From positions 68,886 through 131,424 of the IMG/VR virus record IMGVR_UViG_3300032167_000057: a DNA stretch of 62,539 nucleotides. The stretch is one strand, 5' to 3'. The DNA is from a virus. Taxonomy: Duplodnaviria > Heunggongvirae > Uroviricota > Caudoviricetes. The notes under the pieces were generated by a model. That model was given only the letters and a program-made list of their open reading frames with translations. It was not told the DNA's origin and did no database searches. This document shows, one piece after another, positions 4,236 to 62,539 of this stretch (its first letter is position 1; each line of letters opens with the position of its first letter). A program made the translations under genes and the position numbers.

Positions 4236-4847
4236 CTATGCTTTATATGTTTTAATCTGTCCGTCTGGATAGATAGATATAACCGTTTTACTGGATGGGT
4301 AGCGTTTACCCCTATGCGGTAAAATAGGTTTTTTAGGCTGAACGAGTGACGGTTTTTGACAATCCCATTTTTCACGTTCTGCACGTCTGCGCTCTTTACG
4401 GTCAGACGTTTTAACGGCGTGACAATCTGAATATGTAAGGTTATTTTGTGCCAAATAATCGTTGATTTTTTTCGTAGTTGCATTATCTTCTACGTGTCTT
4501 TCCCATTCCAAAGTGAGCGCATTGCGACGGTATAAAACCAATGCGTCTGGATTTTTTTCGTCGTAGTAGCGAATGTGCGTATAGACATAATTACCCTGTG
4601 CGTCATGTCCATAAACGGCATTTAACGGTAAGTGAAACTCATGGAAAATAAACCCGTGCGTTTTTGCGTGGTTTATCGACTTACGACATTTTGCCAGAAA
4701 ATAGCGTGGTTTTGTTTTGGTGGGTTTTGCAGTTTCGTAGAATGTCAGTGTGCCAGTTTTATGCATGGCGTTTTTGGAGTCTGAATTTTTATTCATATTA
4801 TGTACCTCATAATTTTTTGCAATCAAAAAAAGACCTGAATAGGTCAT
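4236..4847 (-). CDS. basic hypothetical protein
   Basis: ORF track; bounded by terminators; GC-richer than neighbours. Confidence 0.6.
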   Translation of the reverse strand: MTYSGLFLIAKNYEVHNMNKNSDSKNAMHKTGTLTFYETAKPTKTKPRYFLAKCRKSINHAKTHGFIFHEFHLPLNAVYGHDAQGNYVYTHIRYYDEKNPDALVLYRRNALTLEWERHVEDNATTKKINDYLAQNNLTYSDCHAVKTSDRKERRRAEREKWDCQKPSLVQPKKPILPHRGKRYPSSKTVISIYPDGQIKTYKA

Positions 4848-4864
4848 GAATTTTTAAACATGAG

Positions 4865-4889
4865 AAAAAAGGGCTAAACGCCCTTTTTT
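4865..4889. terminator. intrinsic terminator, potentially bidirectional
   Basis: A6-GGGC-taaac-GCCC-T6. Confidence 0.7.
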
Positions 4890-4905
4890 CCTGAATATGT
4901 ACTAA

Positions 4906-5736
4906 TTATTTTGATTCTTTCGCAAGTGTGCCAGTACGTGCCTTGTCTGCTTCGGCAACTTTTAACGCCTTGTCATGTTCTAAAATACAGCCGTAAAGGT
5001 AAAGACCGAGAATCTTGCAAAACTTGTCCAGTTTGATTGTGTCAAGCGTCAAGCCTGAAGTAGAACCAATAGAAAAACCTTTTACCATGATTGACTGGAA
5101 AGCAGTTGCTACTGACATTTTACAATCTTTCAACTCTTCCAGTTCATACTCATCAAAATCTTTGGATTGTTTCACGCTGATATTATCTACTGGCAACACT
5201 TTGCAAGTGCTAAAATATGGGTTTTCCGGCAAGGTTGACACTAATTTATGCAATGCTACTTTGAGACTATCCTTTAATGACTTATCAGTACCTTTAATGA
5301 GTGCCACTCTAATAATTCTAGGTTGAATTTCCAGCAATTCTAAGTCACGCTGAGTAGTCTTTTTTGCCATCATGCGGATGATTGCTTGCACTTTATCATC
5401 CAGACTGTTAAAAATGGCAATGTTTTCGGAGTAAACCGCATAATCGGCAGACTCTTTTAATTCGTCACGCTTCACCTGATATTTGGCAAGTTTTTCGGTG
5501 TTTTCTGGTGTTGGGTTGTTGTTGTCCACATCTTCACAAGTAGCAATCTTTGCGTCAAGTGACGCAAGTTTGAATTTCACATTACAAGTGGTAACAAGTG
5601 TTTTAACCGCTTTATCGTCCCGAATAAACATTGACTCGGTAGCGGTTGCGGTTGTAGCCTTTGCTACTGGTTTTACCTTAGCGGTAGCCTTTGCGGTTGT
5701 TGTAGTTGCGGTTGTGGTTGTTGTTGTTTTACTCAT
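4906..5736 (-). CDS. hypothetical protein with Thr/Ala/Lys-rich N-terminus
   Basis: SD GAGGT; MSKTTTTTTATTTTAKATAKVKPVAK. Confidence 0.8.
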   Translation of the reverse strand: MSKTTTTTTATTTTAKATAKVKPVAKATTATATESMFIRDDKAVKTLVTTCNVKFKLASLDAKIATCEDVDNNNPTPENTEKLAKYQVKRDELKESADYAVYSENIAIFNSLDDKVQAIIRMMAKKTTQRDLELLEIQPRIIRVALIKGTDKSLKDSLKVALHKLVSTLPENPYFSTCKVLPVDNISVKQSKDFDEYELEELKDCKMSVATAFQSIMVKGFSIGSTSGLTLDTIKLDKFCKILGLYLYGCILEHDKALKVAEADKARTGTLAKESK

Positions 5737-22363: not shown

Positions 22364-22854
22364 ATGGCAACAGCAAATAAAGTATTTTTCGGATTAGACA
22401 ATGTTCAGGCTGTATTTTCTAAAGAAGATTGTTCTTACGCTTCTTTCTCAAAATTAATGTATGATACAGCTGTTGAAAAGTTCGAAGGTGGTATTACTAA
22501 AGAACAGGCTAACAAGAAAATTAGAGAGGTTATGTTTGAAATTATTGGTCTTCCACAGGACGCTTCAAACAGAGAAATTAAGAAAGCTCTCAAATCTACT
22601 GCTGTTAGAGAAGCTGTATTTGCAGTTATCGAAGAGACAGTTGAAGATTTGTTAGTAACAGGATGGGGTAATGACCCGTTCTTCAAACAGTTTGTTGAAT
22701 ATAAGTCAGTTGCTGACGGTGATACAAACGAATTCTATACAAAAGATGAAGTAATCTTAACTTTATCTGAACTTGCTGGTAACCATCATAACTTGATTAG
22801 ACAGAGATTGGGTGCTGGTAAGGCATTTAATGTTCATACTTCATGGTACGGGGT
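22364..22854 (+). CDS. major capsid protein, exon 1
   Basis: Position in head module; ends HTSWYG-GT at predicted splice site. Confidence 0.85.
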
Positions 22855-23254
22855 TAGAAATATAGCTCCCCTTGCAGTGTAAACTGCTTGGCAATAATTA
22901 ACGCATTGAAATGCTGGAAAACCCTAAAGGTAATTAAGCTACAACGTAATGGTGAAATAAACATAGGCGTGAATGCGGTGAAAACAGAAAAAATTAATTA
23001 CATGGGAACGAGGTGTAAACCCCTGTTCTTTTTTTAATGGGTAATCAGCAGGTAAGTTCCGAATAGGAAAAACCTCAACGACTATTCCTTTAAGGAAGTA
23101 GGGTCATAAGCGATTGATGACTCGAAGTGGTGCGCCCCTCAATCGAGGGTGAAGATATAGTCTAATCTTTAATGAAAATTAAAGGGTTTTAATAACCGAC
23201 ACGGAGTAGCGTCCGCAGATAATATTATATAAGTTATCGTGTTAAATAAAAATG
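22855..23254 (+). mobile_element. ORF-less group I intron (400 nt) in major capsid gene
   Basis: P1 GGGGU/GCUCC; AATGCTGGAAA, AATCAGCAGG, TCAACGACTA(23080) and AAGATATAGTCT(23158) core motifs; ends in G; joined frame SWYGV|KIYAEYELFMAGRVDW. Confidence 0.93.
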
Positions 23255-33101: not shown

Positions 33102-35459
33102 ATGTCTACAACAATAGGCCCTAGTGGTGGTTTTGATAAAGCGTTAGATGATATTTTGGGTAAGAAATTTGACCAATCATTTGATAAATTTATAAAGAAA
33201 CAGGCTCAAAAAGAATATACTGTGCCTACCAATATCAATGTTCGTCTTGTAGACAATATTGAAAAAGTACTTGAAGAAGAACGTAAAGAAATTGATGCTC
33301 AGATTCAACACTTTAAGAAAACTATTCAGTCAAATATTAATTCTTATACAAGACACGCTGGTTCGTTGCCACAATCTGTAAATAGATGGATGGGGCGGCA
33401 AAGCAATCAAGAGGATTTACGCAAATCAATAGCTCAAGAATCTGAAGCAGTCTACGGTAGAGCAACACATTATAAACATGATAATTTAAATGCGGAATTA
33501 AAAGCCGCTATTGAAGAACGTACTAAATTAATACGTTATTTACAAGCTCAAGACGACCAGATAAATAATATTAATTATGCTGGTAAAACGACTAAAGGAC
33601 AAATCGCAAAGGCGGCCGCTGAAGAAGAAGAAGCTTTAAACCGCAAATATTTAGCGATTCAGAGAATATATGAAATCGAGCAAAAATATCGTAAACAGTT
33701 ACATGCAAATGACCGACATGCTTTAGGTGTTGAACAATATCAAGCTGGTAGGCAGTCTATTGAACAATACCGTGGTCAAGCGGCACAACATGGTGTCAGT
33801 GCTTATGAGGCTTTGCTCAAATCTAGAGTGGATAGTGCGCAAGGAATGTTTACTCAGTTAGCGCCTCATTTACAGGCCGCTGAGTCTGATGCAGAACGTG
33901 GTCAAATATTGGCTGATTTTAAACAGGGTGTTGAAACTGCAAATTCATTAAGTAAACAAGCACTTGATGGTTTATCTGCTGTTGCAAAAGGTATTGCTCA
34001 AGTTCAAATACCTGACGAAGTAATTGATACTGAAGCAGTAAATATTAGTACAGATGAAATTCAAGAATCTATGCAGGCTACTACTGCTACAGAACAGAAT
34101 ACACAAGCAATAAAAGAGAATATTGAAGCTAAACAAAAGTTAGATTCTCAAGAAGATGAATTAATTGCTGACCAATCGGCTTTAAAATCTGCTATTGATT
34201 CGGCCACTAAAGAATTACAAGACCAAGGACAAGAATTGGCCAATACTGCTCAACAATATAAAAAGGTTGGAGATGCGGCTGATGAAGCGAATTCTAGCAT
34301 ATTGAAACAGACCAAAAAAAGCTCTAGGTCTGGTAATGGGACAGGCGGTGGGTCTGGTTCTGGTAGTACTGGTAAAAAAGAATTAAGTGATAAACAGAAA
34401 TATCTTGCGTTGGTTTCTAAAGAAACGCGTGAGTTAAAGAATTTATTACGTTTAAAAGTAGAATTGGCGAACACTTCTTCTACTGATAAAAATACAATTA
34501 AGACATATGAAAAATTAATAGATTTTTCTGAACAACGTCGTACTGTTTTACGAGCAGAGGGTCAAGCATTATTAGCTAATGTTGATGCAGAGGAACAAGA
34601 AAATTTAGCTCTGCAACGTAAAGCAAAATTACAAGAAGCTTCGATTTCTTATACTCAAAAACTAGCATTAATATCTGCCAAAAAAGAAGATAAATCTATC
34701 AATGCCGCTAATGCTGAATTGGATAAAGCTTTAAAAAAGCAACAACGGTTTGGCACAGTAGTTAAACAGCAAATTGATAATTATCAGATGGCGGCAGATG
34801 CAATACAAGAATTATTATCGACACAAAAATTATTGGGTAGTCCAAGTATTGATACCGCAAAATTAAATTCTGAAGGTATTGCTACTTTTACCCATAAAGT
34901 AAAAACTTCAAGTAACGAAGTACAGACTTGGGCCTTTACTTGGGACGCGGCCACTGGTCAAATATATCAAAACACAAAACGAATTACCACTGTTGGTAGT
35001 AGATTAGAAAAATTCATGGATAGTCTCCGAGGCAAATTTACTGCTTTGGGGACTTATTTATTGAGTTTCGCAAGTTTTTATGATATTGTAAACGCTTTTC
35101 GGTCAGGTATTACAACTATACGTGAGTTGAATACCGAATTAGGTAATATGCGAAAAGTAGCAGATGAATCATTGTCTGTTTTGCAAGAATATCAACTAGC
35201 GGCTCATGATATAGCTTTTGAATTAGCTTCTACTTCTAAACAGGTAATGAGTTCAACCACAGACTTCTTACGTCTTGGCTATTCGTTACAAGAGGCAGCT
35301 TCACTTGCTCAAGATGCTAACATTTATGCAAATGTTGGTGATATGCAAATAGATGAAGCCACTGAACATATGATTTCATCTGTTCAAGCTTGGAAAAGTG
35401 AATTTAACAGTGCTGTTGAAGCATCAACTGCTTTGATTGATAAGTATAATGAAGTGGGT
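33102..35459 (+). CDS. tape measure protein, exon 1 (786 codons)
   Basis: Helical Ala/Gln/Lys-rich; TP901-type core LRLGYSLQEA...IDKYNEVG. Confidence 0.88.
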
Positions 35460-36930
35460 AAACAAATTATTGCCCAAACATACAGTAATGTATGGTGCTA
35501 CTTAATAGTGGCATAGTAGATAACTATATCGGTTAAAAAATGGGGACATTTTAGACCGAGGAAAGACTTAATGTTTACTATCGTCAAAGGGAGGCGATAG
35601 TTATTTCAAAAAAATTAGATTTAACAAATCAAAAATTTGGTAAATTGTTAGTCATTGAAAAAACAAAATCTCCTAATAAAAAACATAAAAGAATATATTG
35701 GTTGTGCCAATGCAATTGTGGAAATACATATGTTACAGATACTACTTCTTTAACTTCTGGTGCTACAACTCAGTGTTTAGAATGCGCTCATAACGCATCT
35801 GGTATCGGTAGAAGAAAAGATTTAACTGGACAAAAATTTGGTCATTTAACTGTTGTAAAAATGTTATATAATTACAACAATACTAAACGAACCAAATGTT
35901 TGTGTGATTGTGATTGCGGTACGATTAACCATTTAACTTCTCCAGATTCATTGGCTCGTGCAACAGAAAATACATCTTGTGGATGTCAAAAAGCAAATTA
36001 TGTTAGAAAATATTGTGCGCGTGACATAGATGGACAACGTTTTGGAAAATTGATTGTATTAGAAACGATTTGGGATAATGGAAAACCTAAAGTACGTTGC
36101 AAATGTGACTGTGGTAATGAAATTATATTAAACAAAAATGATGTACAAAGTGGTCACACATTATCTTGTGGATGTTTACATAAAGAAGTTACATCAAAAA
36201 CAAATACAAAAGATTGGACTAATATCGTTTCTGATTATGGAGTAGAATTTATTAGTCAATCTAGACAGAATAAAGCTGGACAGTGGTTATGGTATTGTAA
36301 ATGTCCTATTTGCAATGATATATTTGAAGCTTTGCCAGCAAAAATTATGGGAGGTCATACTACATCATGTGGATGTAAAATTCAATCATCAGGTGAAAGA
36401 TTAATAAAAAAGACTTTAGATGAATTGAATATAAAATATATCCAACAATATAGTTTTAATGACAACGTATATAAATATAAATTAAAATTCGACTTCGCAT
36501 TATTAAATGATAATGACGAAGTTTTTTGTTTGCTTGAATATGATGGTAGACAACATTATGATTCAATTGAATTTTTTGGTGGAGAAGAACAATTTATAGA
36601 AACTCAAAAAAGAGATTTAATTAAAGATGAATATTGTAAAAATAATAAATTATTATTAATACGTTTACCTTATTATTTAACAACAGATGAAATTCAAGAA
36701 AAGATAGTAAACATTATTTATCCGTAACGACTACAGGGTATATATGGTAACATATGTACTGAAGTTATCCACCCTACTCTTCTGTTTATGAAGATAAGAG
36801 GGTGTAATATATAGTCTGGACTCACGCTATAATCTAACAAAATATGAAACGTGAGAGTTAGCCAGAAATGACTAACCGCTATATTTATATATAGTCAGTA
36901 ACTTAGAATATAAGTGAAAGTAACAGAACG
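35460..36930 (+). mobile_element. group I intron 1 in TMP gene, with endonuclease ORF
   Basis: P1 GGGU/GCCC(35472); P10 AAUUAUU/AACAAUU; P7 GACTA(36729)/TAGTC(36812); ends in G; joined frame DKYNEVG|NNYAITSADIG. Confidence 0.92.
35603..36727 (+). CDS. intron-encoded putative homing endonuclease (CxCxCG repeats plus Vsr/DUF559-like nuclease domain)
   Basis: Repeated DLTGQKFG.L.V...CxCDCG units; C-terminal KFDFA...EYDGRQH; likely ATT start after GGGAGG. Confidence 0.8.
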   Translation: MSKKLDLTNQKFGKLLVIEKTKSPNKKHKRIYWLCQCNCGNTYVTDTTSLTSGATTQCLECAHNASGIGRRKDLTGQKFGHLTVVKMLYNYNNTKRTKCLCDCDCGTINHLTSPDSLARATENTSCGCQKANYVRKYCARDIDGQRFGKLIVLETIWDNGKPKVRCKCDCGNEIILNKNDVQSGHTLSCGCLHKEVTSKTNTKDWTNIVSDYGVEFISQSRQNKAGQWLWYCKCPICNDIFEALPAKIMGGHTTSCGCKIQSSGERLIKKTLDELNIKYIQQYSFNDNVYKYKLKFDFALLNDNDEVFCLLEYDGRQHYDSIEFFGGEEQFIETQKRDLIKDEYCKNNKLLLIRLPYYLTTDEIQEKIVNIIYP

Positions 36931-37641
36931 AACAATTATGCAATTACTTCAGCAGATATCGGTTCAGCCATGGAACGTTCTGCTGCCGCTTTAAAAGCTG
37001 GTGGTAATACACTTAACGAATCAATTGCGTTAATTACTGCTGGTAACCTTATACAACAAGATGCTGATACTACTGCGAATGCTTTAAAGGTTATGTCACT
37101 GAGAATTCGTGGCAGTAAAGCAGAATTAGAAGCCATGGGCGAAGAAACTGATACTCTTGCTGATTCTACTTCTAAACTGCGTGATGAAATTAAAGCATTA
37201 ACTGGTGTAGATATTATGCTGGATGATGATACGTATAAATCAACCACACGTATTATTCAAGAAATTGGTGCAGTTTTTGATAAACTTACTGATGTTTCTC
37301 AGGCTACAGTTTTGGAAAAACTTGCGGGCAAGACACGTTCATCAACAGTAGCTGGTTTGCTTGAGAATTATGAAGTTATTGCTCAGGTAATGGAAACAGC
37401 AGCTAATGCTGAAGGTTCGGCCCAAGAAGAAATGAGCCGATATATGGAAACAATTGATGCTCACTATAATCAACTATTGACAAAATGGGCTCAATTTTGG
37501 GATGTTACCTTAGACACCGATGCAGTTATTGCCATTATAGATGCTTTAACCAATTTGTTGGATAAAGGTATTGAGGCTGGTGGTTTATTAGGTATATTAG
37601 GCGATTTGCTTCCAGCTTTGGCGATATTTAAAGGCAGCGGT
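36931..37641 (+). CDS. tape measure protein, exon 2 (237 codons)
   Basis: In frame with exon 1; TALKVMSLRIRG and EKLAGK TMP-core motifs. Confidence 0.85.
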
Positions 37642-38051
37642 AGACCTAAAATGTTTGGTCTCAAATATGCCGCTATTATTATGTGCCCTTATAGATATAT
37701 AAGTTTTCATAATAAGCTTATTGAAATACAATAAGTAAAAATGCTCGATATGGTCTGAATAGACTTGTGTTTATAATTACACAACTGGGAAGCGGGTTAA
37801 AATTATAGTACTCTCCTATTTCAGTGATGGAATAAGGTTCGTGAAAATCTATAATCTCTCGTGGTCAGCAGGTAAGCTTCTCTCTGAGAAGAAACCCCAC
37901 TGTAATGAAATGGGCATTACACATTAGATGAAACGCTGTGTGTAAAATAGACATTCGAAACTACACCAAGCACGATGGTTAATTATAAGTAGGAATCTAT
38001 CTTCTACTTTCGTGTGTGCGAAACTTGTTTTACTCAAGTCGATAGAAAAGT

Positions 38052-38081
38052 AAAAAAAGACACCGTGTTGTACAGTGTCTT
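38052..38081 (-). terminator. terminator of antisense cargo gene
   Basis: Minus strand GACAC-tgtacaacacg-GTGTC-T7, 16 nt after cargo stop. Confidence 0.7.
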
Positions 38082-38097
38082 AATTATTGATATATAC

Positions 38098-38604
38098 TTA
38101 GAAATTACTTCCGCATTTATTACAATGCCATTGTTTACCGATTTTACCACTACCAAAACCAAACAAACTAAATGAAGTCGCTCGTCCAACCATAGAAATC
38201 TTCTTAGTATCTTTTGATTTACAATATGGACATTCTGCTGAGTCTGGAATAAATTGTGCCAATGCTTGCAAGGATTGGGTCATTCCTTCTCTTTCAGGTA
38301 TATATTCTCTTGGTACTTCTTTGTTATCTACGATTTCAGAAATTAAGTGTATTACATCAAAAATATCTAGTTCTATTACTGAATGAATTTTTGCTTCTAT
38401 TTTATCAGTATTTTCTGAAGAAGATTGACCATGTTTTAATATAAATGCAAATTCATCAGTTAAATCAAAATCAACCCCTTTAATATTACAAATGGTATTT
38501 TTATTTTTAACAAGTAAACGTATTAATGGATATCCACAATGAACACAATTTTCAGTTTGGTCAGAAATTTCTTTTTTACATTCTGGGCATATAATTAAAC
38601 TCAT
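38098..38604 (-). CDS. double zinc-ribbon protein, antisense within TMP intron 2
   Basis: CPEC..CVHCG N-terminus; CPYC...CNKCG C-terminus flanking a Gly-rich hydrophobic patch; SD AAGGTGG. Confidence 0.85.
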   Translation of the reverse strand: MSLIICPECKKEISDQTENCVHCGYPLIRLLVKNKNTICNIKGVDFDLTDEFAFILKHGQSSSENTDKIEAKIHSVIELDIFDVIHLISEIVDNKEVPREYIPEREGMTQSLQALAQFIPDSAECPYCKSKDTKKISMVGRATSFSLFGFGSGKIGKQWHCNKCGSNF

Positions 38605-38632
38605 ATACTATTACCACCTTATTTTTATGTTT

Positions 38633-38662
38633 AATATACCACATTTTTAAAGTGTTTCGCAA
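38633..38662 (-). promoter_or_regulatory. sigmaA-type promoter of cargo gene
   Basis: Minus strand TTGCGA-18 nt-TATATT with TGn extended -10. Confidence 0.6.
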
Positions 38663-38680
38663 CTTTAAATATATAGTTTG

Positions 38681-41600
38681 ATATTACGAATAATAAACGG
38701 ATTAAAAGACTCAGGTTTGAGTGGTAATATTGTCAAACTTGGTCAGGAATTTCAAAAATCGGGTAAATCCGCAGAATATTTAGCAGATGTTACAGGATTA
38801 ACAGTTGAGCAAGTTACCAAATTAACTAAGCTAAAACCTAATTTAGTTTCTTTTGGAAAAACTTTAGGTACAATAGCTGTTGCATATGTAGCTATGTGGA
38901 CAGCATCAAAAGTTTGGGATGCTGTTAATACTACTGTTGACGAAGCCCAAGAAAAAATTGATAATGTTAATTCTAAAATTTCTACGCTTAATAAGGAAAT
39001 TCAAAAGTTAGAAAGTATTGGTTACCGTAACGAGGCTCAAAATAATCGTTTAAATGCTTTGCAAAGAGAATTGGAGTTGCAAGAAAGTTTATTAGCGATT
39101 GAACAAAAACGATATTATCAAGAATTAACTGGAAATCAATTTACTGATAAATTTGATTCAGATAATTTATACACCAAATATTATCAAGAAGCGCCTTATC
39201 TCACTGATGGTTTTGCTGAACAGAATGAAGTTGGAATGATGAAACAACGTTATTCTGTTAATGAGCATAAAATTGCAGAATATGATGAGAAAATTGTCAG
39301 CACTGCTAATGATAATAAGAAAGCTAAATTAATTGAAAAACGAAACAAACTGTTAGAGAAACAAGTTGATTTAGCTGGTCAATTAGCAGAAAAAGAAGTA
39401 GAATATCTTGATTATTATACACAAGCTCAAGAAGCAGTTGATAGTGGCCTATTATATGGTAGTGATTTAGAAGATGCTAAAGAATTAGCTTCTTTATGGA
39501 AAGCGGCTTATGAAGATATCAGTTCAATTAGCACTGAAATTCAAAAAGCCAATGATACTTTTGATTATTCTGCTCAGATAGCTGGTATTTTAGGTAAAGT
39601 TGATTATAAAGATTTAAAAGACCCATTAATAGAATTAGCGAAAAATGGTGATTTATCGGTCAACTTACTTGAAACTGAGTATACAGCTTTGACAGAAGCG
39701 TTAGAAGCTGCTGGTATTGAAGCGTCTGAATTATATTATTATTTATTAAATTTAGCTGACCCTCAAATGGCTCAGCGTACTAAAGATATTGCCGCTTTAA
39801 ACACACGTGTTGGTATAGATAGTAATATTGATAGTGCTGGTGAAGCGCAAGCCCATTCTTTATTATATAATGCTGGTGCTTATACTGATGAAGGGTTAAC
39901 CGCATGGGCAACAATTCAAACAGAAATTGATACTTCTAATTGGACTGTTGAAGATATTGCTGCTGCCATCCAAGAAAAACTGGACGGACAGGTTATCGAA
40001 CCCGAAATCAATGTTACGCCTACTATTACTTCTTCTGTTCAAGAAATTGCAAAACAGCTTGAACCGCAAATGTCGGCTTTGGAGGAAGTATATAATTCTA
40101 TCTTCAATGGTGAAGGTGGTTTTAATGCTGATATAATTGACCATTCTATGATGGCTAATTTAGAAGCATCCTTTAATCAACTTGAGGAAGATTTGGGAGT
40201 CACTTTTGATTCACAAGCGCTTGAAGATTTCTTTAGGGTTCTGGGTGATGGTGTTTATACTGCCGATGAAGCTCAAAATGCTTTCAATGATTTAGCAACG
40301 GCTTGGTTTTATAGCACAGACGTTTTAGACCATTTGAGCAAAGAAACTGCTGGTGCTATTACACAACAGTTAGAATTAATGGGTGTAACTAATGCTGCTG
40401 AAGTGGTACAAACCCAATTAAACAATATAACAGCAGAAAAGAAATATGCTGCTCAAGTAGGTAAAGAATTAGCAGAGGCTACTTATTCAGAAGCTTATGC
40501 TTTTATTTCTGATGAAATTGCTCTTGGTAATGCAGATAAGAGTTTATATACTTATTATTTAACAAAACTAGCTGTTAATGGTGCTACGGTTAATACAATA
40601 GATGATTGCCGAAATGTATTGGCATTAGCTAACGCGGCTGATATTTCTGGTGAGGCACTTGATCAACTTGCTTCTTTGATGGCTTCCTATGATAAAGCAA
40701 TGGCACAAGGTAATTATACCGGTGCTACTGTTATTGCTAATGAAATTAATAAAATGAAAGCTAAAGTTGATGCGGAAATTGCCAACTTTAAACCTACTGA
40801 AATTAATTGGTCTCCTGTTGTTGATTCCGCTGGTAAAGCAGGTAAAGATGCTGGTGAAGAACTTAAAGACCAGTTAGAACAGGAACTTAATGACCTAGAT
40901 TCAGTTATTAGTTCTGTAACCAATATTATTGGTGATAGAATTGATGATTTACAGAATCAAATGGATGCAGCTATTGATGCATTAGAAGCAGAACGTGACG
41001 CGGCAATTGAGGCTTTAGAAGATGAGAAAAAGGCTCTTGAAGACGCAGTAAAAGCAAAACAAGACCAGATAGATGCTATTCGTGAAGCTCGTGAAGAAAG
41101 GTCTGCTGAACTAGATTTACAACGCAAGGAATATGAACTAGAACGTTTACAGAATCAAAGAACACTTTTAATCTATAGTGACTCTAAAGGTTTTCATTAC
41201 GAGAACGATTCTAAGGAAGTAAGAGATGCTAAAGAAGCTGTTGATGAAGCTAAAGAAGAAATTGAAATTCTTAAAATTGAAAAAGAAATTTCTGCTTTGG
41301 AAGATTCCATAGATAACATTGATGATAAAATCGAAGAAGTCAATGACCACTATGATAAACTTATTGAACAAACCGAGCAATACTGGCAATCTCTCATTGA
41401 TAGCCTAGAGGCATATAAATCACGTTGGGAAGAATTAGCAGAACTTAAAGAGCAAGCCGAATTCCAAAGACAATTAGAAGAACTTGGTTTATCTTCTGTT
41501 GATATTCTCAATATGAGTGAAGAGGCTTTCCAATCATTTAAGACACAATATTCAGAAGCTCTTAACGCTTATTTAGCCGCTTCAGGTGCTACGGAAGAAG

Positions 41601-43057
41601 AATTAGCTAACATGGCTGGTTCTGTTGATAAATTAGGCAGTTCCTCTTCTACTGCTTCATCTGGTATTAAATCTGCCGCAGGCGCTACGCAAGAATTAAA
41701 AGACAGTGCTCAAGGCATTTCAGATGAAATGTCCAATACTGTAACTGCTATTGAAGGTTTAAATTCAGTAAGTCTAAAAGGTTTGCAATTAACTTTTACT
41801 AATTTGATTAATACAATCCAATCAGTTTCAGAAGCCATAGGCGCGTTATCTACTGGTGCTACTGAAAGTGGAGTTGGTGGATTGGTCGGCGCTATTTCTG
41901 CATTAAATGCTGTTAATTTAGGTGGGGATGGAGAAGGTATTATTGATAAATTCAATAAACTGAAAGAGGCAGTATCTCAGGTTAGTGCGGCTATTACAGG
42001 CGGTGCTGGTGCAGCTGATACTGGTATAGATTTAACCGATAGAGGTTTTCCATCTGCTACTGGTCAGTCTACTACATCTGGTTCTGATGGTAGTGCTGGA
42101 TTAATTGGTGCTATTGAAGAGCAAGGTCAAATTGCCGAAACAGTTTTATCAGAGGAAATTCCTAGATTCAATGGTGAAGAAGAATCATTATTAGGTGCGG
42201 TAACAGATGTTACTACCGCTATTGCTGGTTCTGGAGACTCAGAAGAAGGTTCTGGCGAAGAAATAGATGCTACTAATCTTATGGGTGCAATTGAGGCACA
42301 ATATGATAAAGCCTTAGAAGTTCTACCAGATGAGAAATCCAAATTTGAAGAACTGCTAGAAGTAATTAAATCATGTGTTACTGAGTTAAATAATATGGTA
42401 ACTGCAATGCAGAATATGTCAGAAATGGAGTTTAATTTTGGTGGTGGCTCTACTGGCGGTGGATATAAAGGTACTGTTGGTAATGCTTTTGCTAAAGGTA
42501 CAATGAATATCAGAAGTTTACCTATTACTGGATATAAAGGTTTGCCACATGATGAGAAAAATGCGATGCGTTCTGAGTATGGTCAACCAGAATTGACAGT
42601 ATATCCAGACGGTACAACTGAACTCACAAGTAAACCTGTAATGTCAGACTTACCGAAAGGTACTGTAATTTTCAATGAAGAACAAACAAAGCGCATTATG
42701 CATAACCAAGGTACTGTTCTTGGTAAAGCTCATGCGGAAGGTACACTTCCTGCTGGTCTTATCCCGCTTGAAGCTGTTGACCCAGCAAAATATAAGATGC
42801 TGTCTGGTTCTTCTTTGGTTAAATTAACTGGTGTTGCTTTAGAAAAAGCTTTTGATAAACAAAATTCAGTATTAACTGAAACGGTTAATCAGGCATTGAA
42901 TTTACGTACAAATACTCCTGCTAAAGCACCAATTCATATGGGTGACATACAGTTTATTTGTAACGGAATTACTGCTGACCAAGTTGAAAAACAAATTAGC
43001 GGACATTTTGAAGGGCTGTTTACAGACGCTTATCAAAAATCAATGACCCGTCAATAA
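38681..43057 (+). CDS. tape measure protein, exon 3 (spliced product about 2480 aa)
   Basis: 1458-aa coiled-coil ORF without a good SD; C-terminal AFAKGT and GQPELT motifs. Confidence 0.8.
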   Translation: MLRIINGLKDSGLSGNIVKLGQEFQKSGKSAEYLADVTGLTVEQVTKLTKLKPNLVSFGKTLGTIAVAYVAMWTASKVWDAVNTTVDEAQEKIDNVNSKISTLNKEIQKLESIGYRNEAQNNRLNALQRELELQESLLAIEQKRYYQELTGNQFTDKFDSDNLYTKYYQEAPYLTDGFAEQNEVGMMKQRYSVNEHKIAEYDEKIVSTANDNKKAKLIEKRNKLLEKQVDLAGQLAEKEVEYLDYYTQAQEAVDSGLLYGSDLEDAKELASLWKAAYEDISSISTEIQKANDTFDYSAQIAGILGKVDYKDLKDPLIELAKNGDLSVNLLETEYTALTEALEAAGIEASELYYYLLNLADPQMAQRTKDIAALNTRVGIDSNIDSAGEAQAHSLLYNAGAYTDEGLTAWATIQTEIDTSNWTVEDIAAAIQEKLDGQVIEPEINVTPTITSSVQEIAKQLEPQMSALEEVYNSIFNGEGGFNADIIDHSMMANLEASFNQLEEDLGVTFDSQALEDFFRVLGDGVYTADEAQNAFNDLATAWFYSTDVLDHLSKETAGAITQQLELMGVTNAAEVVQTQLNNITAEKKYAAQVGKELAEATYSEAYAFISDEIALGNADKSLYTYYLTKLAVNGATVNTIDDCRNVLALANAADISGEALDQLASLMASYDKAMAQGNYTGATVIANEINKMKAKVDAEIANFKPTEINWSPVVDSAGKAGKDAGEELKDQLEQELNDLDSVISSVTNIIGDRIDDLQNQMDAAIDALEAERDAAIEALEDEKKALEDAVKAKQDQIDAIREAREERSAELDLQRKEYELERLQNQRTLLIYSDSKGFHYENDSKEVRDAKEAVDEAKEEIEILKIEKEISALEDSIDNIDDKIEEVNDHYDKLIEQTEQYWQSLIDSLEAYKSRWEELAELKEQAEFQRQLEELGLSSVDILNMSEEAFQSFKTQYSEALNAYLAASGATEEELANMAGSVDKLGSSSSTASSGIKSAAGATQELKDSAQGISDEMSNTVTAIEGLNSVSLKGLQLTFTNLINTIQSVSEAIGALSTGATESGVGGLVGAISALNAVNLGGDGEGIIDKFNKLKEAVSQVSAAITGGAGAADTGIDLTDRGFPSATGQSTTSGSDGSAGLIGAIEEQGQIAETVLSEEIPRFNGEEESLLGAVTDVTTAIAGSGDSEEGSGEEIDATNLMGAIEAQYDKALEVLPDEKSKFEELLEVIKSCVTELNNMVTAMQNMSEMEFNFGGGSTGGGYKGTVGNAFAKGTMNIRSLPITGYKGLPHDEKNAMRSEYGQPELTVYPDGTTELTSKPVMSDLPKGTVIFNEEQTKRIMHNQGTVLGKAHAEGTLPAGLIPLEAVDPAKYKMLSGSSLVKLTGVALEKAFDKQNSVLTETVNQALNLRTNTPAKAPIHMGDIQFICNGITADQVEKQISGHFEGLFTDAYQKSMTRQ

Positions 43058-58683: not shown

Positions 58684-61296
58684 ATGGCTGATAAAAAAGT
58701 TAGATATATTAATCTGAATAATCAGATTTTAACTTTAGGTGGTGACGGTATTTTGTCATTCCCTGATATAGCGACAATGGCTTCCGAGCCTATCGCAAAT
58801 TTACAAAACGGAGCTATTGGATGGGTAGACAGCGAACAGAAATACTTCCAATGGCTTGATACAAATGAAATTTCTGAAATGGGATATTGGAAAGAACTTA
58901 TCTTTGGTTCTGACTTTCAGATTTCAGACCCTACTACTTCTGCTGACGATGATAGATATAAGGGCAAGGTTGTACAGTATGTTGGTGAAGATGATTTGAC
59001 GACTGGATTTAAGAAAGGTTATTTCTACGAATCAAGATTGTCAAATACTATTAATTATGTTGAAACTGTGTGTACAGAAACATCAACAGGAACATATTAT
59101 ATTCTTCGTGATGGGGAATATTTAGAAGTAGTTTTACTCGGCGATGGTACTACTTTTGACCCTAATGAAACTTATTATAAGAAACAAGATGTCGAGGTCT
59201 ATGGTTGGTTTTATATCAATGCATTACGTGTCGACACTGAATTAGCTGATACTGATTATGCAATTGCAAACAAGACTGTAAAAGCAAAGTTTGAAGAAGT
59301 AATCCAAGACTACACAGACAAAAACGATGAATTAAGAGAATATGTAGATAATGACCTTACTACTTCTCTTCAACAGTACACAGATAATAAAATTGATGAT
59401 ACTGATGAAGAAATTTTTGAGGATAAAACTTGGTCAAGCAGTAAGATAAACACTAAGTTTGAGGAAGTCACTCAGACTATTACAGATGGAAATGACGCAC
59501 TCACTGAATATGTAGATACTTCTTTAGAGGGATACGAGAAGAAATTTGTTGAGTGTACATTTGAAGAATATAAACAGATGGAAACAGATGGTACTGTAGA
59601 ATCAGATGTTGATTACATTATTACAACTAATGAATCAGGTGCTCTATTGAGTGGCCTTGACACAAATCACGGTGATTCTGAAATTTCAACATATGAAGTT
59701 ATTGAGGAATTAAAGAGTGATGTAGAAAATCTTATTGATGATACAGACCTTACTTCTACAACAAGCACATTTTCAGCAAATAAGATAAAAAATGCTGTTA
59801 CTTATAGTTTTGATACTCAATCTGGTAATGTAAAATATGTTAAATTCAAGCCAAGTGTAACTGCAATTTCTGTTGCTGATATATATGGTGGAAAAATAGA
59901 AATTCTTGGTGCAAGTAAGTCTGTCTCTAATCCAGACTATAAAACAGTAAAAGTTGTTAGACTTAGTTATGGCGATTGGGGTTCATATGATGCAACACAA
60001 GTTCCATCTGTAGTACATACAAAGATAGGAGAGTTATATTATTATCCTACCGATGAATATTACTATTTGAAACTTTATAATTATGCTTCCTTCACTATGA
60101 CAGGTTTAGCAACTGCTCCTGAGATGGTTACAAGCTTACCTGCTGAAGAAAGTGCAATGACTTTGATACCTGAAAGTGTGTTTACTACTAAAAGTGACCT
60201 TGCAGCACAAACAGCTAACAGACAAGTTAAGACATTTGACAATACTGGTGCATCAACAGAAAAATGGTACAAAATTTGTTCTGCCATAACAGGAGGAATA
60301 GGTTGTAATATTAAACTTACTGCAAGTAGGGCAGACTCTACCGCTACAGTGCAATATTTTTCAGCTTTATTTAGAGATAATAGATATAGATATACAAGTT
60401 CCTATATTTTAAGAGAAAGAACCGTATATGAATCTGAATTAGTTGCAGAGTATAGTGCTTATATTATAGCAGATGCAAATAATGATATTTGGGTTCACAT
60501 ACCAAGCTACGGAAAAGCAATCATTGAGATAGATACAAGAGCAATTACCATTGATGGAACAGCAGGTACTCCTGTTAAAGATTATGTTTATAGTTCTTTT
60601 GAAAGTCAGATGCTTAAAGACAAGTTTGATAAAATTAACATCAAACAATTTAATCAGCCTGGTAGTAATACATCTTTTAAATATGTAACTATTACATCAG
60701 GTGGGAATGGAGTTGGTGGATTAGAACTTAATGTTCCTTATGCTGGAAAGTATATGTTCTCTACTCCGAAGTCAGAACCAGTTTATTTTGGTAGTAGCAC
60801 CCATAGAGGATATACTTTAAATGGTTGGGCTTGGTCTGATGATGGTAAAACTTTATATTTAAGAGTTGCGGGATTTGCACCATTCTCAATATCTGTTCTT
60901 GGCTCTGTCCCTAAAGATACAAGCCCTAATAATGTAGTTACAATATCTGATATGACCTCTACTGCTCCAGAGGGTGTTACTTTTGTTTCGTCACCAGTTT
61001 ATAGTAATGCTACTACTAACGATATTGTCGGCTCAAAGACACAGTATCGTGGTAGTCGAAGTATAGACATAAGCACTGGTGGTAAACTTACGATTATCTA
61101 CTCAAGTGAGTATGCATCACAAGCAGGTTGTTATATGTTATTATCTAACTTCAATACTGAACCACTATTGATTGAATTAGGAAGAACTAATATTGGTCAA
61201 TTTAGCGTAACTGCAAAACATAAATCACAAAATGTAGATACAATTACTGTTACAGCTGCTGGTGACGAATATAGTTGGTATGTATTACAGTTTTAA
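58684..61296 (+). CDS. tail fibre or receptor-binding protein, 870 aa
   Basis: TWSSSKI-type repeats; beta-rich C-terminal modules. Confidence 0.7.
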   Translation: MADKKVRYINLNNQILTLGGDGILSFPDIATMASEPIANLQNGAIGWVDSEQKYFQWLDTNEISEMGYWKELIFGSDFQISDPTTSADDDRYKGKVVQYVGEDDLTTGFKKGYFYESRLSNTINYVETVCTETSTGTYYILRDGEYLEVVLLGDGTTFDPNETYYKKQDVEVYGWFYINALRVDTELADTDYAIANKTVKAKFEEVIQDYTDKNDELREYVDNDLTTSLQQYTDNKIDDTDEEIFEDKTWSSSKINTKFEEVTQTITDGNDALTEYVDTSLEGYEKKFVECTFEEYKQMETDGTVESDVDYIITTNESGALLSGLDTNHGDSEISTYEVIEELKSDVENLIDDTDLTSTTSTFSANKIKNAVTYSFDTQSGNVKYVKFKPSVTAISVADIYGGKIEILGASKSVSNPDYKTVKVVRLSYGDWGSYDATQVPSVVHTKIGELYYYPTDEYYYLKLYNYASFTMTGLATAPEMVTSLPAEESAMTLIPESVFTTKSDLAAQTANRQVKTFDNTGASTEKWYKICSAITGGIGCNIKLTASRADSTATVQYFSALFRDNRYRYTSSYILRERTVYESELVAEYSAYIIADANNDIWVHIPSYGKAIIEIDTRAITIDGTAGTPVKDYVYSSFESQMLKDKFDKINIKQFNQPGSNTSFKYVTITSGGNGVGGLELNVPYAGKYMFSTPKSEPVYFGSSTHRGYTLNGWAWSDDGKTLYLRVAGFAPFSISVLGSVPKDTSPNNVVTISDMTSTAPEGVTFVSSPVYSNATTNDIVGSKTQYRGSRSIDISTGGKLTIIYSSEYASQAGCYMLLSNFNTEPLLIELGRTNIGQFSVTAKHKSQNVDTITVTAAGDEYSWYVLQF

Positions 61297-61448: not shown

Positions 61449-62539
61449 ATGGAAAATAAACGTGGATTCATTATACGAAATGGCGTTAAAATCGGTGCGG
61501 TAGGCGATAAGAACTTTTCTACTTTGCACATTGGTTGTATCACACCGTATTTAGGTACAAAAGACAATGTTCCAAGAGGTTATTTACTCGCAGATGGTGC
61601 TAGTTATAAAACAACAGATTATCCTGAGTTATTTGATATTATCGGATATACCTATGGTGGTTCAGATGGCACATTCAATGTACCTAACCTTTGTGATGGA
61701 CGTTTCCTTGAAGGTTCTGATACAAGTGGTGAATATGTTGAAGCAGGATTGCCTAATATTACTGGTTACTTAGATATGGACGTAGGTGGTGCTCAAAACG
61801 TAGAAGGTGCTTTTTATAAAGGTACAACTTTTAATGCTCTTTATGGTGGAAACCCCACAACAGTTACTGATGTAGCATTTGACGCTTCCAAATCCAACCC
61901 TATTTACGGCAACGCTGATACAGTACAACCAAAATCATTGAGAGTTTTATATATCATCAAGGCTTTCCATACTAATGAGGGCGTGGATAGTGGTGTTAGT
62001 GATGATGTGGTTGATTATGTGGATAATAAGGTTGCCACAAAGAAAGATGCTGTAAAACTTCTTAACAATGCAACAGATTCAACAAAATGGCTTAAACTTA
62101 AATTAGGTAGTTCCGCAACGTGCCAACCTATTATAGTTTCAGACCAATATGGTGGAAAAGTTGAAATTACTGGTATGACTAATGATGGTACATATAAATC
62201 TGCGAAATTGGTTAGATATAGTTATGGTGATTGGACTACACACAGCGCAACAGATTATACTCTGTATAATGGAGTTGACCCTAATTATAAGATTCAGAAA
62301 TTTTATTATTATCCTACTGATGGTTATTACTATCTTGAAATTAGACAGTGGGCAACCATTAAAGTTGAGGGAAATAGCGCTGCGGAACTGGTTACAAGCT
62401 TACCTGCTGAAGAAAGTGAAATGACTTTAATACCTGAGAGTAATTGGGGCAGAATTGATGATACTTCAACAAAGACATCTTCAACTTGGAGCAGTAGCAA
62501 AATTGCTCAACAGATTAATAGTGCAACTACTATTAAGTA
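61449..62539 (+). CDS. tail fibre protein with tail-collar domain, partial (runs off window)
   Basis: Not in ORF track (no stop). IGCITPY..VPRGYLLADG..YPELFDIIGYTYGG..FNVPNL collar motif; GLPNITG. Confidence 0.85.
   Translation, partial: MENKRGFIIRNGVKIGAVGDKNFSTLHIGCITPYLGTKDNVPRGYLLADGASYKTTDYPELFDIIGYTYGGSDGTFNVPNLCDGRFLEGSDTSGEYVEAGLPNITGYLDMDVGGAQNVEGAFYKGTTFNALYGGNPTTVTDVAFDASKSNPIYGNADTVQPKSLRVLYIIKAFHTNEGVDSGVSDDVVDYVDNKVATKKDAVKLLNNATDSTKWLKLKLGSSATCQPIIVSDQYGGKVEITGMTNDGTYKSAKLVRYSYGDWTTHSATDYTLYNGVDPNYKIQKFYYYPTDGYYYLEIRQWATIKVEGNSAAELVTSLPAEESEMTLIPESNWGRIDDTSTKTSSTWSSSKIAQQINSATTIK

Follow-up and report, generated by a model that had tools for sequence, protein, structure and literature searches.

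Comparison of homologous introns points to an ordinary catalytic core in the second tape-measure intron of a tailed phage

Does the second intron of a phage tape-measure gene build its guanosine site from an unusual base pair? The question is raised by a tailed phage (Caudoviricetes) represented by a 131-kb record with terminal repeats (IMG/VR record IMGVR_UViG_3300032167_000057), of which positions 68,886 to 131,424, a stretch of 62,539 nucleotides, constitute the window analysed here. In this window, the tape-measure gene is found in three pieces (33102-35516, 36931-37641 and 38681-43057; features are numbered by their position in the window and reside on the plus strand unless stated otherwise), the latter two being separated by 1039 nucleotides (37642-38680) that we refer to as tape-measure intron 2. 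An earlier note on this DNA, made from its letters alone, had proposed an atypical catalytic core, where the helix P7 would either contain an A-U pair at the guanosine site or reach downstream of the assumed splice site. The same note had named an overlooked ordinary P7 as the finding that would speak against this proposal, and it is this finding that has emerged from the covariation of homologues. We consider it likely that the segment 37642-38680 is a group I intron of the phage tape-measure gene with an ordinary catalytic core.

Covariation of the intron core

Homologues of exon 3 led to the contigs L004 and L005, which contain the same intron with the same antisense open reading frame (ORF), and a shorter ORF-less intron is located at the same site of contig L006. 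Pattern scans with four motif sets recovered L009/L010, L126-L131, L134-L138 and L143-L146, and contig look-ups added L139-L142. The complete fold was derived by comparing the intron to about 20 homologues located at this site of the tape-measure gene, with alignment statistics calculated on 14 sequences (11 in an earlier version of the test). Among these 14 sequences, 91.8% of the cells of the proposed structure, which comprises 105 pairs, are paired, a value that drops to 33-42% in a control where the 3' partners were shifted by 1-3 columns. Both sides have changed in 67 of the 105 pairs and the observed values were reached in none of 500 shuffles. At the level of aligned sequences, the secondary structure and the boundaries of the intron are shown by covariation, and self-splicing and its chemistry are what we infer. 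The fold displays the features of a group I intron, including a P1 helix with a U.G pair, a terminal G accompanied by P10, a P4-P5-P6 domain, a P3/P7 pseudoknot and a G-C pair beside a bulge in P7, and its core elements follow the order P7-P3'-P8-J8/7-P7' that is canonical for the group I pseudoknot.

The 5' strand of P7 (C-[U]-G-[U]-AAUG, 37900-37907) starts three nucleotides after P6, preceded by J6/7 (CCA, 37897-99), and pairs with CAUUCG at 37952-57, a 3' strand that had escaped the earlier note and that together with the preceding J8/7 (AAUAGA, 37946-51) occupies positions 37946-37957. In this helix, the pair C37900-G37957 is followed by the bulged U37901, the pair G37902-C37956, a second bulged base (U37903), the pairs A37904-U37955 and A37905-U37954, a U-A pair and finally G37907-C37952. 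As expected of P7, it encloses J7/3 (AAAU, 37908-11), the 3' strand of P3, P8 and J8/7. P7 is paired in 14 of 14 aligned sequences. In the clade formed by L143, L144 and L146, it is changed to C-[A]-G-[U]-AGUA facing UACUCG, where A37905-U37954 is replaced by G-C and G37907-C37952 by A-U, with pairing still at 100%. The bulge positions vary freely, with U, A or G found at 37901 and a C at 37903 in L138. Introns at the homologous site carry P7 at the same place, as in L139 (GAGAUUC/GAAUCC), L140 (UCGAAUA/UAUUCA) and L006 (GAGCACUAU/AUAGUCC), and a differently spelled P7 of the same form is likewise located there in L142. An initially favoured register of P7 (37906-11/37953-57) was rejected because it leaves A.C and C.C mismatched in the clade of L143, and UAGAC (37948-52) was discarded as 3' strand since no partner was found for this stretch, which is part of J8/7.

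The two strands of P3, UGCUC (37742-37746) and GGGCA (37912-37916), are paired in 14 of 14 sequences with changes on both sides in three of five pairs, and the versions found in relatives include UAUCC/GGAUA, CGUCC/GGACG, CGCCC/GGGCG and, in L141, CGGUU/AACCG. In keeping with the canonical order, its 3' strand is located between the 5' strand of P7 and P8. The P8 hairpin (37917-23/37939-45) has undergone changes on both sides in seven of seven pairs among the relatives. Other assignments of P3 fit less well. The pairing 37745-57/37948-58 suggested by the earlier note is paired in 83% of cells and shows no compensatory change. UUACACA (37777-83) and UGUGUAA (37939-45) each belong to a covarying local hairpin of their own (H3b and P8), and UGCCC in the internal loop of P2 (37683-87) would encounter mismatches in L126 and L129, whereas UGCUC at 37742-46 is 100% paired. 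Similarly, the hairpin between GUAAU and CAUUAC that had been put forward as a switch is not conserved (70% paired), and CAUUAC spans the 3' strand of P3 and the start of P8.

Within P7, the pair G37902-C37956, which follows a C-G pair and the bulged U37901, is invariant in the 14 sequences and is a candidate for the guanosine-binding pair, in a canonical pattern of C-G, bulge, G-C and A-U. We take the arrangement C262-G312, A263, G264-C311 and A265-U310 of the Tetrahymena ribozyme to correspond to C37900-G37957, the bulge, G37902-C37956 and A37904-U37955, although in tape-measure intron 2 the G-C pair is followed by an additional bulge of one base (U37903). It was for the Tetrahymena ribozyme that G264-C311 was reportedly identified as guanosine site by Michel and colleagues in 1989, together with a switch of specificity upon its replacement by A-U. 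As there is no natural A-U replacement at the guanosine site of tape-measure intron 2, the question of an altered nucleoside specificity that the earlier note had attached to it does not arise.

An A-U pair at this position would have resulted if P7 were formed by AACUA (37959-63) and UAGUU (38674-78), which would imply the use of another cofactor or an altered interaction of the terminal G. The observation underlying this proposal is correct in that GACTA and TAGTC are absent from the entire segment 37642-38680, and the helix itself exists (37958-63/38674-79), covaries and closes the cargo loop. Yet it leaves out the 3' strand of P3 (37912-16) and P8, both proven by covariation, and since it encloses neither of them it is not P7 in topological terms. 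It also begins about 60 nucleotides after P6, compared to the 2-4 nucleotides expected, and its sequence changes freely in close relatives (AAACUA, AGAC, GUACUA), in contrast to the near-invariance of the true P7. An obvious canonical P7 immediately precedes this helix in L139, L140 and L006, and L009, L134 and L138 have G-C or G.U beside the terminal G, so A-U is not fixed at this position. We thus view this assignment as very improbable. Instead, AAACUA (37958-37963) and UAGUUU (38674-79) form P9.0, because they are located immediately 3' of P7 and abut the terminal G38680, and its A-U pair does not reside at the guanosine site. With six base pairs this P9.0 is unusually long. Its sequence is found in nine listed versions and one more in L146, each with 4-6 pairs, which include AGAC/GUCU in L126, GUACU/AGUAC in L009, GUACUA/UAGUAU in L138, AACUUA/UAAGUU in L139, AAACAU/AUGUUU in L140, AUCUGU/ACAGAU in L006 and GUACUA/UAGUGU in L146.

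Several observations weigh against an ordinary core. P7 does not vary in 11 of the 14 sequences and its compensatory changes originate from a single clade of three near-identical sequences, therefore amounting to about one event per pair. The core is not of textbook appearance throughout, as J5/4 consists of GG instead of being A-rich and P7 contains a second bulge. Moreover, the Rfam model RF00028 did not match the 3.9-kb region or the 381-nucleotide core at E <= 10 and was also blank in four related loci, and it does find the capsid-gene intron of the same phage (79 bits). Finally, the presence of P7 motifs had been a requirement of the initial searches; when unrelated motifs were used later, the same loci were recovered together with new ones. 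A covariance model of the subfamily core identifies L141 (E = 5e-21) and L139 (E = 7.6e-7) and aligns the same P7 columns in both.

Exons and splice sites

For both interruptions, the continuity of the gene is apparent from proteins encoded without them. In the tape-measure protein of Brevibacillus phage Sundance, residues 639-848 align to 34836-35459 and residues 849-1062 to 36931-37563, and the first interruption is therefore proven by the split of this alignment at 848/849. In case of the second, uninterrupted tape-measure proteins of 2200 amino acids align to both flanks, and if the exons are fused at 37641|38681, such proteins cross the join in a single segment in the frame ...FKGSG|ILRIINGLK.... 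The spliced junction would be expected to read ...GGCAGCGGU|AUAUUACGA..., with 37641 joined to 38681.

The intron limits rest on P1, P10, the terminal G and the core as defined by comparison. The end of exon 2 (AGCGGU, 37636-37641) constitutes the 5' strand of P1 and pairs with GCCGCU (37669-74) of the internal guide sequence (37664-37674), which places the 5' splice site after U37641, opposite to G37669 in a wobble pair, and thus about 100 nucleotides upstream of the position where the earlier note had started the intron. Exon strand and guide covary, with 100% of the cells paired and three compensatory pairs in the alignment, and relatives display the versions UUCGGU/GCCGAA, GUCGGU/GCCGAC, GUUGGU/GCCAAC and AACGGU/GCCGUU. 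In contig L129 (at about 925 and 975), P1 reads GAGGGU/AUCCUC with the splice-site U facing an A and not a G, an uncommon situation among group I introns. The remainder of the guide sequence (AAUAU, 37664-68) is the P10 strand and is complementary to AUAUU at the start of exon 3 (38681-38685). On the 3' side, the terminal G38680 is conserved in every relative with known 3' end, zero or one nucleotide after P9.0. From 38681 onwards, the window differs from L004 and L005 in many bases with the peptide pattern kept (ILRIINGLKDSGLSGN compared to ILQFITALKDQGLTGN), and this coding-type substitution identifies the stretch as exon 3. The 3' splice site at G38680, one of two alternatives in the earlier note, has thus been retained.

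In the other alternative, the C.GUAAU strand (37900-06) would pair with AUUACG at 38683-88 to form P7, with a 3' splice site further downstream, for example at G38746. Its first strand is indeed the 5' strand of P7, to which AUUACG of the window is complementary. The proposed partner is, however, part of an exon that varies among relatives: its G is already an A in L004 and L005, and relatives with an invariant GUAAUG start exon 3 with AUAUCUGG, AAAAUC, AAUAUC or AUAUUC and contain no AUUAC. A later splice site would fall inside coding sequence, as the stretch from 38681 encodes a peptide pattern that is kept in L004 and L005, and the hairpin 38709-23 that such a site would require is absent from L004. 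We give this pairing almost no credence. A related candidate, which employed the same hairpin as P9 in combination with a splice site at 38725, was rejected for corresponding reasons, since the stretch is coding and not conserved in L004.

With P7 at 37900-07/37952-57 and the 3' splice site after G38680, we infer a standard two-step mechanism. In the first step, exogenous guanosine bound at G37902-C37956 would attack after U37641, which is marked by its U.G wobble in P1, and in the second P9.0 and P10 would bring the terminal G38680 into the same site, leading to the ligation of the exons.

Peripheral helices and the cargo loop

Between P1 and P3, the intron contains P2 (37676-82/37709-15) with an inner hairpin (37688-93/37698-703) and P2.1 (37717-23/37729-35), in all of which most pairs are compensatory. 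Two hairpins separate P3 from P4, namely H3a with a GAAU loop (37753-56/37761-64) and H3b (37765-70/37779-84), the latter adjoining P4 without joining bases. Both are 100% paired in the alignment with many compensatory changes, and the intron at the homologous site of L006 contains one hairpin at this location. In the P4-P6 domain (37785-37896), P4 (37785-88/37865-68) is invariant and P5 (37792-96/37858-62), P5a (37802-08/37849-55), P6 (37871-72/37895-96) and P6a (37877-82/37886-91) covary; P5b is located at 37815-20/37831-37. Beside P4, the G.G opposition 37789/37864 is changed to U-A in L130 and L131, which points to conservation of a non-canonical pair where P4 meets J4/5.

P9 (37965-68/37976-79) and P9.1 (37989-94/38002-07) show compensatory changes and are followed by the P9.2 hairpin (38023-27/38035-39), whose loop (38028-33) pairs with 38050-55 as a pseudoknot. 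Compensatory changes are found in helices 16-19 of the P9 region, the last two of which are aligned less well and are 68-77% paired. The cargo is inserted into the loop after P9.2, which is closed by a covarying stem (UGCGAA, 38017-38022, with UUCGCA, 38656-61), found as GUGGAA/UUCCAC in L138, UGUGGAU/AUCCACA in L126, UUGUGGAG/CUCCACAA in L146 and GUGGAA/UUCCAU in L009. The same cargo-holding loop is also closed by P9.0. The 3' tail of the intron (38656-38680) comprises the closing-stem strand, an A/U-rich linker, the P9.0 strand UAGUUU and the terminal G38680.

The cargo itself is a self-contained gene on the minus strand (38057-38662), consisting of a promoter-like site (38662-38633, TTGCGA-18-TATATT with a TG), an ORF of 168 amino acids with a zinc ribbon at either end (38604-38098) and a terminator-like hairpin (38081-38057). 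In Pfam, PHROGs, NCBIfam and the ESM Atlas, the ORF matched zinc-ribbon families only. Homologous antisense ORFs are located beside the 3' splice site in L004, L005, L126, L134 and L009, with an additional helix-turn-helix (HTH) gene in the latter, and the loop contains an unrelated small ORF in L138 and a TnpB-type ORF in L127 and L128. In L008, an antisense zinc-ribbon homologue (4396-5001) is placed directly upstream of an exon-3-like tape-measure ORF; upstream of it neither exon 2 nor a ribozyme is visible, only unrelated genes (Bro-N/ANT, DUF2513). This arrangement could reflect a split tape-measure gene or the remnant of the 3' part of an intron.

The retention of the zinc-ribbon ORF beside the 3' splice site in several relatives bears on the possibility that the intron has kept a group I fold but lost efficient self-splicing, being either dependent on a protein, with the antisense zinc-ribbon protein as possible maturase, or partly defective due to the antisense promoter and the length of the cargo loop. 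The unusual J5/4, the double bulge in P7, the absence of P7.1 and P7.2 and the failure of the general Rfam model to find a match would be in line with such a dependence. Conversely, the tape-measure protein is indispensable and its exons remain in frame, and introns without zinc-ribbon ORF (L138, L127 and L139-L142) share the same core. The ribozyme part of the window is 99.4-99.6% identical to that of L004 and L005, compared to 76-80% for the antisense ORF and the 3' tail and 62-85% for the exon-3 proteins, and an identity so far above that of cargo and exons implies strong constraint or recent spread. We consider the loss of efficient self-splicing unlikely.

Relation to known introns and spread of the family

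Group I introns of the self-splicing type that interrupt tape-measure genes are known from prophages of the Bacillus cereus group, where three of them have been described as TMP-IVS1 to IVS3 (Tourasse and Kolsto, 2008; PMC2504315). As in the present case, these introns interrupt conserved stretches of the gene, with several in one gene, and are near-identical across phages (PMC2504315). They were assigned to the subgroups IA1 or IA2, whereas tape-measure intron 2 lacks P7.1 and P7.2 and instead contains two hairpins between P3 and P4, for which reason it does not fit IA2. With respect to this subgroup, P7 and the 3' strand of P3 are separated by four nucleotides only (AAAU, 37908-11), leaving P7.1 and P7.2 absent, and the extended domain 9 (P9.0, P9.1 and P9.2) is present. 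In the open-access literature, we found neither an account of two hairpins placed in this way nor papers that name P3.1 or P3.2 in group I introns.

The capsid gene of the same phage is interrupted by a further intron (22846-23184), which shares with tape-measure intron 2 the layout of P4 and P6 and a 12-mer across P4'-P6 (UCAGCAGGUAAG). It differs by GACUA/UAGUC in P7, the presence of P7.1 and P7.2, a normal J3/4 and the lack of cargo, and our subfamily covariance model matched it over P6 only (E = 0.024). The motifs on which the earlier note had based its comparison, AACTGGGAA at 37783-91 and TCAGCAGGTAAG at 37865-76, were found as described, the latter identical to 23045-56 of the capsid intron and present in four copies in the window where none are expected, and AACTA (37959), TAGTT (38674), GTAATG (37902), CATTAC (37915) and ATTACG (38683) were located as well. 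Two of the TCAGCAGGTAAG copies are on the minus strand (60135-60146 and 62399-62410), within about 40 nucleotides common to two paralogous plus-strand genes. Latter copies look like a repeated coding motif, with no intron-like context visible.

The position of the cargo resembles that of IStrons of the CdISt1 and BcISt1 types, which contain a complete ribozyme at the 5' end, an extended domain 9 (P9.0, P9.1 and P9.2) and, downstream of P9.2 and close to the 3' splice site, foreign DNA (Tourasse et al., 2014; PMC4227781). Tape-measure intron 2 has its cargo in the corresponding place, which in L127, L128 and L137 is occupied by a TnpB-type ORF (OrfB_IS605). In L127 (6045-7184), and also in L128 and L137, this ORF displays HTH_OrfB_IS605, OrfB_IS605 and a Cas12f1-like TNB domain. 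The three contigs contain an IStron-like element at a homing-type site of the tape-measure gene. By contrast, the cargo in the window is an antisense zinc-ribbon gene and no IS200/IS605 or IS607 transposase, and the tape-measure family occupies one conserved gene site in the manner of homing introns, not the targets of transposons. IStron cores have moreover been reported as IA2 with P7.1 and P7.2, both of which are missing in tape-measure intron 2.

Tentatively, these properties might define a structural subclass of group I introns that has not been described so far and that is confined to one tape-measure site of phages from gut Clostridia, with a P9.0 of six base pairs and an exchangeable cargo bay. 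Its accessory hairpins would be located on the side of the 5' strand of P3 and not, as P7.1 and P7.2, on that of its 3' strand, and depending on the member the bay would contain an antisense zinc-ribbon gene or genes for a TnpB, HTH or small membrane protein. If this is true, the subclass would be a plausible source population for IStrons.

Other interruptions were encountered in the same gene. In the window, the ORF of tape-measure intron 1 (35645-36727) has PHROG matches to HNH endonuclease, homing endonuclease and intron-encoded nuclease, with a match to phrog_559 at 8e-43 and a weak one to DUF2726; this intron is missing from L004 and apparently present without ORF in L005. Contig L006 (5851-6223) reveals at least three further tape-measure interruptions, including one group I intron recognised by Rfam (P7 GACCA/UGGUC). 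The site of tape-measure intron 2 is also occupied by a more distant intron in L001 (MT837120, about 4677-5100), an unverified scaffold of a human-gut phage, with GCUGGGU/GCCCAGC as P1 and GAGAGCA/UGCUCC as P7 and no exon 3 following on the scaffold.

Searches with the region by blastn and tblastn against a phage collection returned no match except distant ones to exon 2, viral contigs yielded no locus in a search seeded with proteins, and a scan with a bare 14-mer gave mostly chance matches. The 3' ends of the introns of L127/L128 and L135 were not found in the available contig DNA. More than 100 database entries annotated as 'TP901 family tape measure protein' (P0038-P0157) are fragments of exon 2 that read into introns of this family. 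The tail of these fragments (G-R-x-K...KYA or ...NMP) results from translation of the guide sequence AAUAUGCC, a motif that recurs among the relatives and that appears as KYA or NMP in over 100 ORFs of the databases. An annotation of tape-measure genes that is blind to the intron appears to be widespread in gut metagenomes.

A natural A-U pair at the guanosine site of a group I intron would have been striking. The atypical site that was proposed does not exist, and this outcome spares a pursuit of it in the wet lab. What has been gained is a secondary structure backed by covariation for a widespread intron family that is invisible to the standard Rfam model, that makes more than 100 metagenomic tape-measure genes appear as fragments in their annotation and that combines the cargo position of IStrons with varied cargo.

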